A stretch of 43,264 nt of DNA, taken from the sequence record NC_048172.1. One strand, 5' to 3'. Shown here piece after piece: positions 160-5,350 of this stretch (position 1 is its first letter; each line of letters begins with the position of its first letter). This DNA comes from Escherichia phage Minorna. The notes beneath the pieces are model-generated. The model was not told the DNA's origin. It saw only the letters and a list, made by a program, of their open reading frames with translations, and ran no database searches. The position numbers and the translations under genes are program-made.

Positions 160-1680
160 CTACCGCTGCGCTGATACCGTCCAGCTAAAGTATTGGTCCC
201 CCGATACATTATTACGAACACGTATAATAATATTCTGACCGGATACCTCAAACCAGAACGGGGCGTTGATATCTGTAGTAGGAGTTACCTGAACGTAGCG
301 ACCTTGTAAGGCGCGCGATATACCGGTAGGTACAGTAACCGAGTTGGTCCCTGAAGCTATCTTAGCTGCCCCAGTATTATAAGTAACATACTGCGGGCAG
401 TTCTCGATGGTGACAGCTGCATCGCTAGCATTACTTATTGCACCGTTTACGTTACCTCGGGCATCTACGTTAACGAACTTAACACCACTACCAATACCGT
501 CAGATATAAAGATCCCGTAACCTTGATTGTTAAACTCGAATACAGGAGTTGCACCAGCCTTAACGTTTGTGAAGTTCACATTCTGCACCCCGGCCCCTAA
601 CTCTATTCCGTGCTTCTGTCCGCGGGTTGCCATACTGTTAGCATTACAACTGATGTTACTGAAGTTAATGCCTCCTACATTATAACCTGTGAGCAGTATT
701 CCTGAGCCTTTATTGTTAACACAGGTCAGTCCGTTAAAGTTCAGGTTCTCAAGCCCACCATTCTCAGCATTAAGATGTACTCCAGGATGTAATGCAGTTG
801 TCCCACAAGAACTTCCCCAGCAACCGTTGAAGTTCAGGTCTGAGACACTGGCTCCCCCAGTAGGGGCAAACATTAACCCGCACTCCTTACAGGTATCGCC
901 TAAGATAGCAGTGTAGAAACTGCCTCTACATTTAGTAGCACCAGACGGTAGCCAGGCGTAACCATACTTCATTCCCAAACAGTCGATGTTAGACGCATAG
1001 ACGCCAGAGGCATTGACCTCCTTAACCCCACATCCTTTACCACCCCCTGACAGTACTAGGTTCTGCAGGAACACATCCTGAACTACAGCCGAGGAGGTAT
1101 CGCCTATCACAATAACATCTTCGCTAGTAGTTGCACCGTTAATGGTACAGTTGTTTACGCGGTAGATAAACTGCTGGGGACCGCCGTGCATCTTAAGGAA
1201 GTTATAGAAGGGACCATCTACACGAACATTCTCCAAGCATAAGTTGTATCCGTTAGTCCACGTAATGAAGTCGCCGCTTGTATGTGTCCCATCCACAATA
1301 ATTTGTAGGTCACGGATATGAACATTATTAATATTGGTAGATGCTGTACCGATGGCTGCAAAAGGCACGTTAATTGCAGAGTATAAAAGTACAGTGCTAC
1401 CCTGTCCTGCCCCCACCAAATGCACGTTATTATAGAATGTAAGAGAGCCCTTTAAAGTCCATGTACCAGAGGGTACAGTTACAGCCCCTCCTCCTAGGCT
1501 GTGAGCGTGATTAATCGCGGCTTGGAAGGCAGCACGCGAGTCAGTATTACCTGGAATAGCTCCGAAGTCTGCAACACTAATGTTATCCATTAGTTTAGAC
1601 TCCATGGTACGTTCAACTGCACCTGTTGCGGATGCTTTCCAGTTAACTAACCATGTAGCCACTTTGGTAAGATTTAGCAT
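160..1680 (-). CDS. tailspike / putative polysaccharide depolymerase (pectate-lyase-like beta-helix)
   Basis: 506-aa ORF, last gene in transcription order. N-terminal region (DISVADFGAIPGNTD..AFQAAINHA..GGGAVTVPSGTWTL) resembles the start of pectate-lyase-3 / right-handed beta-helix domains of phage tailspikes; remainder is Gly/Asn/Ser/Thr-rich. Only ~30 aa precede the enzymatic domain. Confidence 0.7.
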   Translation of the reverse strand: MLNLTKVATWLVNWKASATGAVERTMESKLMDNISVADFGAIPGNTDSRAAFQAAINHAHSLGGGAVTVPSGTWTLKGSLTFYNNVHLVGAGQGSTVLLYSAINVPFAAIGTASTNINNVHIRDLQIIVDGTHTSGDFITWTNGYNLCLENVRVDGPFYNFLKMHGGPQQFIYRVNNCTINGATTSEDVIVIGDTSSAVVQDVFLQNLVLSGGGKGCGVKEVNASGVYASNIDCLGMKYGYAWLPSGATKCRGSFYTAILGDTCKECGLMFAPTGGASVSDLNFNGCWGSSCGTTALHPGVHLNAENGGLENLNFNGLTCVNNKGSGILLTGYNVGGINFSNISCNANSMATRGQKHGIELGAGVQNVNFTNVKAGATPVFEFNNQGYGIFISDGIGSGVKFVNVDARGNVNGAISNASDAAVTIENCPQYVTYNTGAAKIASGTNSVTVPTGISRALQGRYVQVTPTTDINAPFWFEVSGQNIIIRVRNNVSGDQYFSWTVSAQR

Positions 1681-1689
1681 TCTGTTCCC

Positions 1690-2289
1690 TTATCTAGGTA
1701 TAGCAGCAACTGCTGCTTGCGTTGATTTGAATTCATTCCCTATAGCCTTAGATTCCCACATACGGCGCTCCCATAGGCCCCAGCATACCTTATTACGCTG
1801 CCCGTTAATATACTGAGAGCAGTCAAAGGTCCAGCGGTTGCCACCCTTGTACACCCAACCGGTGCCTGGGGATTTCTGCTGGTACTTACTAATGTAACGC
1901 CAGTTCAGCACAGCCTTTCCAGCCGCTGCGTAATCTAGGTTTTTGAGGTGCCGTTTCACGGCGCTGCCATTGAAGCCGGCTACGCCTACGTTGTAGATGA
2001 AGTCTACAGACCCTATCAGAGCCACGTCAGAGAGCTGCATAGGAAGCCCGTCAAGAGCCCTAGCATGTCCCCCTGCTGATTCTATCAGTTGCTTCTGACA
2101 GTCGCTCAGAGTGGCTCTCTGGCCCATTTTGACACCTTTTGTCTCCCCGTAGCAGATCGTAGGGATACCGGCACTGTCTTTGTAGGCCGTAAGGCTCAAA
2201 CCTTCATTGTGCTGGACTACCTCCGTAATAGCCCCGCCAAGCATAGTGGCCCCGGCGAGTGCGGCTATAACCCTAGTCCTTAAACTCAT
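1690..2289 (-). CDS. SAR endolysin (T4-lysozyme-like glycoside hydrolase, GH24-type)
   Basis: Catalytic E-x8-D-x5-T pattern (EGLSLTAYKDSAGIPTICYGET); N-terminal Gly/Ala-rich weakly hydrophobic segment (RTRVIAALAGATMLGGAI) typical of a signal-anchor-release domain. Start set at ATG 2289 (AAGGGGG about 9 nt upstream); the track ORF extends to 2313, where the SD would sit too close. Confidence 0.75.
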   Translation of the reverse strand: MSLRTRVIAALAGATMLGGAITEVVQHNEGLSLTAYKDSAGIPTICYGETKGVKMGQRATLSDCQKQLIESAGGHARALDGLPMQLSDVALIGSVDFIYNVGVAGFNGSAVKRHLKNLDYAAAGKAVLNWRYISKYQQKSPGTGWVYKGGNRWTFDCSQYINGQRNKVCWGLWERRMWESKAIGNEFKSTQAAVAAIPR

Positions 2290-2524
2290 ATTTAATAGCC
2301 CCCTTACGTGCATGCTCCTCTAGGAGCTTGTATGTGCGCCATTTATAGTACGCATTCCACGCCAGGGTTAGCACTGCACACACCGTCGCAGTGATGAAGC
2401 TGATAACACTCCAGTCCCAACTCATTAGCTCTGCCAACCAACCTCCTGAGACTGTAGCACCAGTAACAGCTGCTCCTGCCCGGGTAGCGAGGTCTGCCCC
2501 AACTACATCTCCCACTTTAATCAT
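2273..2524 (-). CDS. putative holin (pinholin-like, Gly/Ala-rich first segment plus one strong TMD)
   Basis: 83 aa; Gly/Ala-rich segment (RAGAAVTGATVSGGWLAEL) followed by hydrophobic helix (VISFITATVCAVLTLAW) and charged C-terminus; sits between spanin and SAR endolysin. Confidence 0.5.
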   Translation of the reverse strand: MIKVGDVVGADLATRAGAAVTGATVSGGWLAELMSWDWSVISFITATVCAVLTLAWNAYYKWRTYKLLEEHARKGAIKYEFKD

Positions 2525-2921
2525 CCTGCTGACCCTTCTTCCTAAATAGCTTACGAATCACCAGAATGGCCACTAGGAAGACCAAAGGGATGCTGGCCCC
2601 TGCTAATCCGGCGAGAATAAGACTGTAACTATCGTTGTTAACCACCTGTAGGCGCTCTGCCTGGATTGTGCCTGTACTAATAGTCTGCACTTGCTTCTTG
2701 CTAGAAGTATCCAGTGTACCTACGTTAGAATCCTGTACATCGGTTTTGTTGGTGGTGCTGGAGTCCACCTTATTATTCAGCCCGAGCATCTGTTTAGTAT
2801 TCTCAGCGCCAACCTGAGCAGATACTTCCGGCTTAGAACCAACTAAGCCGGTCAGTGCAGAGGTCGCTGAGCAACCAGTCAGAGTAACCGCGAGCAGTAA
2901 CCCAGCGACCAGTTTGCGCAT
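2517..2921 (-). CDS. unimolecular spanin (u-spanin, T1 gp11-like topology)
   Basis: 134 aa; N-terminal lipoprotein signal with lipobox (LAVTLTGC), Ser/Thr-rich periplasmic region, and C-terminal TMD (ILAGLAGASIPLVFLVAILVI) followed by RKLFRKKG; within the lysis cassette. Confidence 0.6.
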   Translation of the reverse strand: MRKLVAGLLLAVTLTGCSATSALTGLVGSKPEVSAQVGAENTKQMLGLNNKVDSSTTNKTDVQDSNVGTLDTSSKKQVQTISTGTIQAERLQVVNNDSYSLILAGLAGASIPLVFLVAILVIRKLFRKKGQQDD

Positions 2922-3103
2922 TAGCTAGCCGCCTTCACCGCTGCAATAGCAGCTTCCAGTGCGGCAACCTTAGTGTCGAACGCTGCACCAGTCTGGGCTA
3001 CGTTCTGAGGCTGCGTAAGGATTGCATACAGGTCCTTACCCAGAATGTTCAGTTGACGCAGCAGCTCCTGCTGCTGTGCTTGTGTTGCCTTAGCAATTGC
3101 CAT
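2921..3103 (-). CDS. hypothetical protein (60 aa, Ala/Gln-rich, helical)
   Basis: ORF in the gene-dense minus-strand array; stop overlaps the spanin start; no TMD. Confidence 0.4.
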   Translation of the reverse strand: MAIAKATQAQQQELLRQLNILGKDLYAILTQPQNVAQTGAAFDTKVAALEAAIAAVKAAS

Positions 3104-3116
3104 AGTAATTCTCCTA

Positions 3117-3494
3117 TTATGCTGCAGCAGCGTTAGTCGCTGCTACGAAGGCCGACTGTAGGGCCTTGAATGAGTTGTCGAAGTCCGTACCAGAACCCTC
3201 ACCTAGCGGCATACCTGTACCGGTGAGCGCTACGTAGCCGGTCTTGCTAAGCTGGAACAGCATGGAGAACAGTCGCGCCTGCAGGGTGCCATCATCCTTA
3301 AAGGATTCCCCGACAGCTGTAGCCGAGTAGCCTTGGGACTCCATGTAGGCAAAGAACGTGTTGAATTTATCCAGCGCACCCGTACCCACAAAGCCGACAT
3401 TGTAGTCAGGGGCCACCTCTTTCTCAAGGTTCTGGCTCTTGCCTACAATGGCGTACTGTACATCCGCAGATTTAGCCGCGATGATTGATGCCAT
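3117..3494 (-). CDS. hypothetical protein (125 aa)
   Basis: ORF immediately downstream of the large terminase gene; start overlaps the terminase stop; no recognisable motif. Confidence 0.5.
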   Translation of the reverse strand: MASIIAAKSADVQYAIVGKSQNLEKEVAPDYNVGFVGTGALDKFNTFFAYMESQGYSATAVGESFKDDGTLQARLFSMLFQLSKTGYVALTGTGMPLGEGSGTDFDNSFKALQSAFVAATNAAAA

Positions 3495-5350
3495 TATCGT
3501 CTTCCTCTATGTTGTTTGCCTCTACCCCGACCTTGCAGCCGTGCAGCGACTCCCCGCAACTGTTTCTGGACCATACCCTGTGCCCAGTCCAACGGGTTAT
3601 TGATGAATGCTAGTGCCTGCTTCTCAGACTCTCGTGCAGCTACCACTTTCTCATCTTCTACCAGATGCCCGTTCAGTACTGCTACCATCATAGCGATGGC
3701 GTCTGCTCGGTCATCCTTAGCCAAGCTACCCCGGTCATACGTAATACCTGCGAGCTGTGCGAACGCAGAGTACAACCAGCGACGATCTCGGGGGTATAGC
3801 ATACAAGTCCCAATATCATCGTGAATAGCACGCTCATGCACCACTAGGCGGTGTCGTCGAGTTACTGGACTGATTGTGTCTATGATACGACGTTCTTTCT
3901 GCGTGGTGTTGTTAATGTCACGCACACCAATACCAGCAAGGTGACGCTCTCGTAAGCGGTTCAGAATAAGCATAGACACGGTACCGTGCCCCATGTTACT
4001 CTCTACCACCATGTCAGAGATGTCTAACTCTACGCACAGGTCAATGAGCTTGTCGATATTCTCGGTGCTTACACCTCCTTGGAAGCCCCCAACTGAGAAC
4101 AGATGAATGTATGAGTTAGCAGCCCCGCCCGCAGCATAGGAGACTTCATCCCCACCACAACCAGCTGGGTCCACCACCAGCACCTTGTGCTGATACGGCA
4201 AGTGCATATCTCCGTAGAATGCCGGGAAGTACATCTGCTGACCCATAATCCCCTCATGCTCGTGCTGGTATAAGTACCGGCGGTCCGCAATGTAGGAGAA
4301 GGTCTCTGGGGAGGAATCCTGGCTACCAGAGTAAACCAGCATATCCGAAAGCTTGATACGTGTACGCATCTGGTCGGACAGGGTTGTGTCGAGCATGTAC
4401 TGCAACTGGAAGCCTTCTGGGCCGAAGTCCAACTCCTTCTCAATCAGCGCATCCTCATCGTAGCGACCCTTATCGGTGCTCTCCCCTAACGTCCCATCGA
4501 CGCCGAAGCCGGTGCGTTTATAGCCGCGCTCAATAAGCTCCCGGATATAAGGAGCAAGTGTACTTCCATATCGCTCTTCCATTTCAACAGACGGAATGCG
4601 CCCAGGCCACACGCGGACCTCGAAGCCACGTCCCGGCAGTGTTTTATAGATACTGTCCTTGGTCTGTGGTGTACCCAGGTACAGCGTATCCCCGTGCGTA
4701 CAGATGGCCGCGAAGTCTTTAGAAATCGTCAGCAGCTGCTCGCGCTGGGTTTGCGTTAAGCCGTTCTTGGTGGTCTCGATATCGTCCGGAATCAGTAGGT
4801 CCGCACGCTTCCCCTGTAGGGATGCAGTGATACCTACACAGGCTACGCTGGCGGACTTATCTAGAGGTTTCAGGTCACAGTGTACGTCGTAACCTTCAAA
4901 GGAGGTTCGGTCCCCACGTGTAGGGTCAGCCTTCAAGTAGCACAGCAGCGGCCAGGTTTCCAGCATACGAATAATTAAGTTTGCTACGTCGGAAGCCTGC
5001 TTCTCAGCACCCGACACAATCAGGATACGGCAGGATTGGTCCTGGATGAGCCTCCAGACAGCGTATAGCGCAGCTAGTGTAGACTTAGCCTCACCACGCT
5101 GTGCAGCCACCATGCGCTTCCTAGGGCCCTTCTGCATATACTCTGCAATGTCGGCTTGCATGTCCGTGAGCGTAAAGCCTAGGAAGCGCATACCTATATA
5201 TGCGAACTCCCTGAAATTACTGAGGGTAGCCGCCATCATCATGGCGATATCCTCGCGCTCCTCTTTGGGAATACTGCGCGGGTTCGCATTATAACCAGTA
5301 AGTTTCTGGTTGAGCATGCGCAGTCTTCGCGCAGTCTTCACCGATACCAT
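3494..5350 (-). CDS. terminase large subunit (T7 gp19-like DNA maturase B)
   Basis: 618-aa ORF at the position and size of T7-like large terminases, with ATPase-like N-terminal half and nuclease-like C-terminal half; directly follows the putative small subunit. Confidence 0.85.
   Translation of the reverse strand: MVSVKTARRLRMLNQKLTGYNANPRSIPKEEREDIAMMMAATLSNFREFAYIGMRFLGFTLTDMQADIAEYMQKGPRKRMVAAQRGEAKSTLAALYAVWRLIQDQSCRILIVSGAEKQASDVANLIIRMLETWPLLCYLKADPTRGDRTSFEGYDVHCDLKPLDKSASVACVGITASLQGKRADLLIPDDIETTKNGLTQTQREQLLTISKDFAAICTHGDTLYLGTPQTKDSIYKTLPGRGFEVRVWPGRIPSVEMEERYGSTLAPYIRELIERGYKRTGFGVDGTLGESTDKGRYDEDALIEKELDFGPEGFQLQYMLDTTLSDQMRTRIKLSDMLVYSGSQDSSPETFSYIADRRYLYQHEHEGIMGQQMYFPAFYGDMHLPYQHKVLVVDPAGCGGDEVSYAAGGAANSYIHLFSVGGFQGGVSTENIDKLIDLCVELDISDMVVESNMGHGTVSMLILNRLRERHLAGIGVRDINNTTQKERRIIDTISPVTRRHRLVVHERAIHDDIGTCMLYPRDRRWLYSAFAQLAGITYDRGSLAKDDRADAIAMMVAVLNGHLVEDEKVVAARESEKQALAFINNPLDWAQGMVQKQLRGVAARLQGRGRGKQHRGRR

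Follow-up and report, generated by a model that had tools for sequence, protein, structure and literature searches.

A KP34-like lysis cassette of unimolecular spanin, putative pinholin and SAR-type endolysin in Escherichia phage Minorna

By which route would Escherichia phage Minorna (sequence record NC_048172.1; 43,264 nucleotides, hereafter the window) open its host cell? The question is raised by three small genes at positions 1690–2921, which the original prediction, made from the sequence alone, described as a lysis cassette built of a unimolecular spanin (u-spanin), a pinholin-like protein, and an endolysin with a signal-anchor-release (SAR) domain. We find the interval filled by three consecutive overlapping open reading frames (ORFs) on the minus strand, encoding in order a spanin of 134 amino acids (aa), a holin of 83 aa, and a lysozyme of 199 aa. 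The genes, their motifs, and their homologies are direct observations. From these we judge that a KP34-like (Drulisvirus) phage has its late lysis cassette here, one that very probably follows the pinholin/SAR-endolysin/u-spanin pathway of phages 21 and T1 (we put the probability at roughly 0.88).

The three ORFs are real genes and not chance ORFs, because they match PHROG families with E-values of 2e-50 (spanin, phrog_1804), 2e-16 (holin, phrog_20), and 6e-35 (endolysin). They overlap one another, as predicted: the spanin and holin genes share 8 nt (ATGATTAA), and the holin and endolysin genes share 17 nt when counted from an ATG at 2289, or 41 nt when counted from the ATG at 2313 that was called by the ORF finder. 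The latter call would yield an endolysin of 207 aa, and we rejected it. The endolysin is assigned 199 aa because two Klebsiella phages, KpV475 and AttikonH4, have AGG in place of the ATG at 2313, and because the conserved ATG at 2289 serves as the start in the annotation of relatives (e.g., AV102) and is preceded by an AAGGGGG ribosome-binding site 9 nt upstream. The in-frame ATG at 2311–2313 (minus strand), 24 nt upstream of the conserved start, is common to Minorna and AV102 and is probably unused. At the other end of the cassette, an upstream gene of 60 aa shares 1 nt with the start of the spanin gene (TAATG), by which the two are translationally coupled.

Comparison with sequenced phages places the window within a known group. 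Positions 1400–3600 share 98.1% nucleotide identity with Escherichia phage AV102, in which the three genes are annotated as endolysin, holin, and putative spanin, and a further 246 phage records, mostly from Klebsiella Drulisvirus phages, are 80–95% identical over the same positions. The cassette recurs in no fewer than 247 phage records with nucleotide identity of 80% or more. In its far half the window remains collinear with AV102, and it is there that a phage RNA polymerase and a DNA polymerase are encoded. The source phage is a member of Drulisvirus (Autographiviridae, Slopekvirinae), a KP34-like podophage, for which the term ‘T7-like’ used in the original prediction is imprecise.

The 134-aa protein combines an N-terminal lipobox with a C-terminal transmembrane domain (TMD), as had been proposed. 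Its N-terminus, MRKLVAGLLLAVTLTGC, consists of a basic n-region and a hydrophobic core followed by the lipobox LTGC (residues 14–17), detected with the pattern [LVI][ASTVI][GAS]C. LPAM_1, the Pfam model of the lipoprotein attachment site, scores 20.3 bits, barely above its cut-off of 20. Taking the absence of Asp at position +2 after the lipidated Cys as the criterion for outer-membrane sorting, we find Ser18 after Cys17, which is compatible with that destination. When the protein is aligned with its counterparts from KpV475, AttikonH4, PAS7, PhiM1, and T1, residues L14, G16, C17, and S18 are invariant across the six spanin homologues, T1 gp11 included, and a Q-x-GAENTKQ motif (Q36, G38–Q44), the C-terminal helix, and the basic tail are invariant or conserved. 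In an AlphaFold2 model built from this six-sequence alignment, with a mean predicted local distance difference test (pLDDT) score of 50, the helix at residues 98–132 is the only confident part.

Similarity to T1 gp11, the experimentally validated prototype u-spanin, extends over 125 of the 134 residues at 40% identity (E-value 7e-26), which lies within the bounds of the T1 gp11 family, drawn at a minimum of 40% identity to a member across no less than 40% of the length (Kongari et al., 2018). The protein is 100% identical in amino-acid sequence to the ‘putative spanin’ of AV102, 94–97% identical to Klebsiella Drulisvirus spanins (94% for F19), and 49% identical to the homologue in phage vB_EcoS-26046I; some other phage records carry the label ‘u-spanin’. 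A tblastn search returned homologues in 1,139 phage records, among them many T1-like siphophages at 39–49% identity, and searches of PDB sequences with the spanin and with the holin gave nothing meaningful. The lipobox Cys17 is the sole Cys of the protein, and a periplasmic Cys is found in no u-spanin (Kongari et al., 2018; PMC6139136). The sequence evidence supports identification of the 134-aa protein as a u-spanin of the T1 gp11 family. The same survey agrees with the prediction that this type is much the rarer, with u-spanins in 58 of 677 genomes and two-component spanins in 528 (PMC6139136).

Phage lipoproteins with other roles exist, for instance the superinfection-exclusion factors T1 Cor and T5 Llp, and some database records give homologues of the 134-aa protein just the label ‘lipoprotein’. 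That it is a lipoprotein of this kind and no spanin is nevertheless very unlikely, with next to no chance of being correct, given its homology to gp11, which complements lambda Rz/Rz1, the two-membrane topology conferred by its C-terminal membrane helix, the overlap of its gene with the holin gene, and a cassette that holds no other spanin candidate. On the coding strand between 1500 and 3600 there is no second lipobox ORF; since no other ORF with a lipoprotein signal occurs there, no Rz1 is hidden in the region, a check that the original prediction had called for. Four matches to the lipobox pattern on the plus strand were considered as embedded or overlapping Rz1-like ORFs and rejected, as they are antisense and without a signal-peptide layout.

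The endolysin matches Pfam PF00959 (Phage_lysozyme; E-value 3.2e-20), and its best solved relatives are PDB 3HDE (E-value 2.7e-10), which we take to be the full-length SAR endolysin of phage 21, and 4ZPU (RrrD of E. coli). Since the two alignments run from residue 2 of the Minorna protein, they take in its N-terminal anchor. Here a basic MSLRTR is followed by VIAALAGATMLGGAITEVV, a segment with 42% Gly+Ala, a Kyte–Doolittle hydropathy (KD) of 1.79, and no Cys; for comparison, the RrrD anchor has 53% Gly+Ala and a KD of 2.11. Within the anchor, M1, S2, L3, A10, and G13 are invariant across T1 gp12, RrrD, PhiM1, and KpV475, and the same four proteins share the catalytic residues E29, D38, and T44 without exception. 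The Gly/Ala-rich, SAR-like N-terminus that was predicted to precede an E-D-T core is thus recovered in the comparison, and we regard a SAR-type endolysin of the phage 21 R kind as supported by these similarities.

The literature on P1 Lyz and R21 distinguishes two modes of control, disulfide caging in the former and refolding in the latter. The only Cys residues of the Minorna endolysin are at positions 46, 64, 157, and 169, none of them in the anchor, and the triad carries D38. Because the anchor is without Cys and Asp occupies the second position of the triad, the enzyme should be regulated by refolding, like that of phage 21, and not by P1 disulfide caging. As a separate observation, the region at residues ~137–199 (positions 1690–1880, minus strand) contains an insertion of about 30 residues with conserved C157 and C169 before a GLWERR motif. 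This insertion, together with a C-terminal tail about 20 residues longer, distinguishes Drulisvirus and PhiM1 endolysins from phage 21 R/RrrD and T1 gp12, and a periplasmic disulfide is possible.

The 83-aa protein is matched over residues 27–66 by Pfam PF04971 (Phage_holin_2_1, P21 holin S) at 26.1 bits (E-value 8.7e-6). Precomputed assignments list the same family in 29 of its 35 database homologues, and five of the six aligned relatives match it, including EssD, the E. coli K-12 homologue of S21 (2e-35), to which the Minorna holin is also linked by direct BLASTP (E-value 9e-5). Its parts follow one another as in EssD: a segment rich in Gly, Ala, Ser, and Thr, a short loop, a strong helix, and a basic tail with a net charge of +3. 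The best 19-residue stretch of its N-terminal part (residues 7–25) has a KD of 1.06 and 47% Gly+Ala, compared with 0.68 and 37% for TMD1 of EssD, and on a membrane-insertion scale neither the first segment nor EssD TMD1 would qualify as a stable helix. The layout anticipated in the original prediction, a Gly/Ala-rich part with one strong TMD, agrees with these results. Pinholins are defined by function, as proteins that form channels of ~2 nm and depolarise the membrane with no passage of folded endolysin (PMC9636201). On the basis of family and layout, identification of the 83-aa protein as P21 S-like and as a putative pinholin is supported.

Extended by homology to the dynamic steps, pinholin behaviour and SAR release among them, these assignments would give the pinholin/SAR-endolysin/spanin route that is reviewed in PMC9636201. 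Judging from the homology to phage 21 R, the endolysin would be exported by the host Sec system and accumulate in inactive form, with its weakly hydrophobic N-terminal anchor fixing it to the inner membrane. The holin, to go by its family and layout, would build up in the inner membrane until, at a set time, small channels collapse the proton-motive force. Depolarisation would then free the anchor, and the enzyme would refold and cut the peptidoglycan. Meanwhile the spanin would bridge the periplasm, with the lipidated Cys17 as its anchor in the outer membrane and the C-terminal helix as its hold on the inner one. Once loss of the peptidoglycan mesh had freed it, the model has the spanin destroy the outer membrane, probably through fusion of both membranes. 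In the literature covered here (PMC6139136), what is experimentally established for u-spanins is complementation of lambda Rz/Rz1 by T1 gp11 only.

Several points weigh against this interpretation. We found no experiments in the literature on any Drulisvirus holin or spanin. The AlphaFold model of spanin residues 16–97 has pLDDT below 50, with only a short helix at residues 20–23, and is unusable for the periplasmic domain, for which the T1 gp11 family has one short helix and, after it, at least four beta strands (Kongari et al., 2018; PMC6139136). The recombinant endolysin LysKpV475, to which the Minorna enzyme is 87% identical, was described as a ‘SAR-endolysin’ that acts from outside on Gram-negative bacteria, and that study covered external antibacterial activity, not membrane topology (PMC11170124). 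The N-terminus of the Minorna endolysin contains the small-residue motifs AGA and GGA, which are conceivable signal-peptidase sites. For the holin, the PF04971 score exceeds the cut-off of 26 by only 0.1 bit; the first segment contains D11, R15, and E32, and Eriksson et al. predicted a single membrane helix, ‘class III’, for the KP34-like holin (PMC4411677). Finally, the dual-start (holin/antiholin) motif of S21 is absent: the gene has a single start, MIKVGD, with the next Met at residue 34, the ORF finder output contains no earlier in-frame start, and EssD begins with MKSMDK. With its single start codon, the Minorna gene has no dual-start antiholin.

The small-residue motifs bear on the possibility that the endolysin has an ordinary cleavable Sec signal peptide and becomes a soluble periplasmic enzyme with no releasable anchor. 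The succession of MSLRTR, VIAALAGATML, and GGA would indeed fit an n-region, an h-region, and a small-residue site. We give this possibility only a slim chance, as the segment aligns from residue 2 with the anchors of 3HDE and RrrD, which also have AxA-like motifs, and its Gly+Ala content is that of the 42% given above; the invariant M1, S2, L3, A10, and G13 suggest a role beyond export, published analyses of the genus name the enzyme a SAR endolysin, and a freely active periplasmic lysozyme would leave the holin pointless. A SAR anchor is the better account of the N-terminus.

The points concerning the holin could be read as signs of a canonical large-hole holin, of class II or of single-helix class III, and not of a pinholin. 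The single predicted helix, the marginal Pfam score, and the lack of a dual-start motif all fit such a protein. A pairing of SAR endolysin and large-hole holin can function, phage P1 being an example, and we count this toward the large-hole reading too. Dual starts are typical of S21, yet pinholin function does not require one. The first segment of the Minorna holin is more hydrophobic than the S21-type TMD1, which is releasable by experiment; software would therefore predict one helix for S21 as well, and the class III assignment is probably traceable to the weak hydrophobicity of this segment. The GenBank annotation of the phage Pone holin places it in class II, as opposed to the class III of Eriksson et al. 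The family link to S21, which comprises the PF04971 matches among homologues and aligned relatives and the BLASTP match to EssD, stands against a large-hole holin, as does the classification of holins of such cassettes as pinholins by Kongari et al. (PMC6139136). A large-hole holin is hence possible but disfavoured by family membership. We likewise consider it doubtful that the protein is a single-helix, single-start relative of the S21 pinholin with a distinct topology, in which the Gly/Ala-rich part would form a soluble or periplasmic arm, there would be no antiholin isoform, and timing would be set differently. The putative two-segment pinholin remains our preferred assignment.

Cassettes of this composition have been described before. 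Eriksson et al. (2015) reported for phages KP34, SU503, SU552A, NTUH-K2044-K1-1, and F19 a holin of 83 residues, an endolysin that carries a SAR domain at its N-terminus (the holins being for that reason ‘in fact pinholins’), and a unimolecular spanin, and made the spanin-holin-endolysin order a genus criterion for KP34-like phages (PMC4411677). The same cassette occurs in PhiM1-like Pectobacterium phages (Buttimer et al., 2018). The T1 gp11 family includes the proteins of KP34, F19, NTUH-K2044-K1-1, and LIMElight, and all but two of its members share their cassette with a pinholin and a SAR endolysin (Kongari et al., 2018; PMC6139136). The cassette is thus already known and ordinary for the genus, its order and its three unusual components having been published in 2015 as a KP34-like hallmark. 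The suggestion that the trio is noteworthy in this phage does not hold, since members of the T1 gp11 spanin family normally come with it as well.

KP34 (p54 spanin, p55 holin, p56 endolysin) and other Drulisvirus phages have the same gene order as Minorna, with capsid decoration genes, u-spanin, holin, SAR endolysin, and tailspike, and their cassettes are alike in protein sizes (134, 83, and about 200 aa) and overlaps; in KpV475 the holin is 93% and the endolysin 87% identical to the Minorna protein. No functional difference was apparent. Minorna differs in that its nearest relatives are labelled by host as phages of E. coli, not Klebsiella, and in the extra, non-conserved in-frame ATG upstream of the endolysin start.

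For phage T1, a siphophage (Drexlerviridae), the literature describes a module of pinholin, SAR endolysin, and u-spanin. Each of its three proteins resembles its Minorna counterpart and has the same predicted topology. The gp12 endolysin is 29% identical, including the MSL N-terminus (E-value 2e-14), and the gp13 holin is similar in its C-terminal half (E-value 2e-6). Compared with gp12, the Minorna endolysin carries the ~30-residue insertion with C157 and C169 and a longer C-terminus. The order in T1 is holin-endolysin-spanin, in contrast to spanin-holin-endolysin in Minorna, and on sequence comparison the Minorna cassette would in effect be a gene-order permutation of the T1 module. Phage 21 and DLP12 offer the closest counterparts for two of the components: S21 (EssD) belongs to the same Pfam family as the Minorna holin and has the two-segment layout that is predicted for it, and R21 (RrrD) is the closest solved relative of the endolysin, in an alignment that spans the SAR anchor and the E-D-T triad. 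They differ from Minorna in having a two-component embedded spanin (RzpD/RzoD) and a dual-start holin/antiholin in place of a single-protein spanin and a single holin start. According to Briers et al. (2011), as cited in PMC4411677, phiKMV gp44–47 (pinholin, SAR endolysin, Rz, Rz1), also from the Autographiviridae, follow the same logic of pinholin and SAR endolysin. Unlike in Minorna, the spanin of phiKMV is two-component and the order is holin-endolysin-Rz-Rz1; similarity of its cassette to that of KP34 is just ~30% over 22% coverage (Eriksson et al., 2015; PMC4411677).

The coordinates of the three genes and of their functional segments are collected in Table 1.

Table 1. Genes and protein segments of the Minorna lysis cassette, with positions in the window.
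Feature	Positions	Strand	Evidence
u-spanin gene, T1 gp11 family, 134 aa	2517–2921	−	phrog_1804 ‘Rz-like spanin’; T1 gp11 similarity; AV102 identity
Predicted spanin lipoprotein signal peptide with lipobox LTGC, residues 1–17, Cys17 lipidated	2871–2921	−	regular expression and hydropathy; LPAM_1
Predicted spanin C-terminal inner-membrane helix, residues 101–122, then basic tail RKLFRKK	2556–2621	−	Kyte–Doolittle 2.5; AlphaFold helix
Holin gene, P21 S-like (putative pinholin), 83 aa	2273–2524	−	Pfam PF04971; phrog_20; EssD BLASTP
Holin weakly hydrophobic Gly/Ala-rich N-terminal segment, ~residues 16–33, putative releasable TMD1	2426–2479	−	aligns under EssD TMD1
Holin strong membrane helix, residues 38–60, putative pore-lining TMD2	2345–2413	−	KD 1.81
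Endolysin gene, GH24 lysozyme with predicted N-terminal signal-anchor-release domain (phage 21 R type), 199 aa	1690–2289	−	Pfam; PDB 3HDE; LysKpV475; conserved start
SAR-like N-terminal hydrophobic segment of endolysin, residues 7–25, after basic MSLRTR	2215–2271	−	aligns to SAR of phage 21 R and RrrD
Endolysin catalytic triad E29-X8-D38-X5-T44	2158–2205	−	invariant in alignment

For annotation, the consequence is practical: ‘hypothetical’ is still the label that many records give to the spanin and the holin, and likewise to a pair of capsid decoration proteins encoded upstream. Phage therapy work in Klebsiella and E. coli makes wide use of Drulisvirus phages, whose endolysins are under development as antibacterials.

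The two upstream genes, encoding proteins of 125 aa (3117–3494) and 60 aa (2921–3103), both on the minus strand, sit between the large terminase and the spanin. The 125-aa protein matches the solved capsid decoration proteins PDB 23sf gp6 (E-value 1.3e-60) and 8eld Gp47, and the 60-aa protein matches 23sf gp5 (E-value 4.5e-29) and 8eld Gp48; the label of both is ‘hypothetical protein’ in most records, those of AV102, KpV475, and AttikonH4 among them. On these matches the two are structural genes, not lysis genes. The 60-aa gene had been considered as a fourth lysis component for its TAATG coupling, and its capsid decoration protein matches ruled this out.

A different arrangement is seen in Escherichia phage vB_EcoP_PAS7, a more distant member of the Slopekvirinae, in which no 125-aa decoration gene lies between the terminase and the 60-aa gene and the lysis cassette is split (positions 1771–4324). 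There the 60-aa gene is followed by spanin and holin; an additional hypothetical gene of 81 aa and then a gene for a tail fiber come next, and the endolysin stands last. Downstream of the Minorna endolysin, a protein of 506 aa (160–1680, minus strand) may be a tailspike or depolymerase, to judge by its pectate-lyase-like domain (Pfam PF12708, 1.8e-14). Of the matches listed, that of AV102 is the only one to cover the start of the 506-aa gene at the nucleotide level, and the others begin at the endolysin, a pattern that fits swapping of receptor-binding proteins in E. coli-infecting Drulisvirus.

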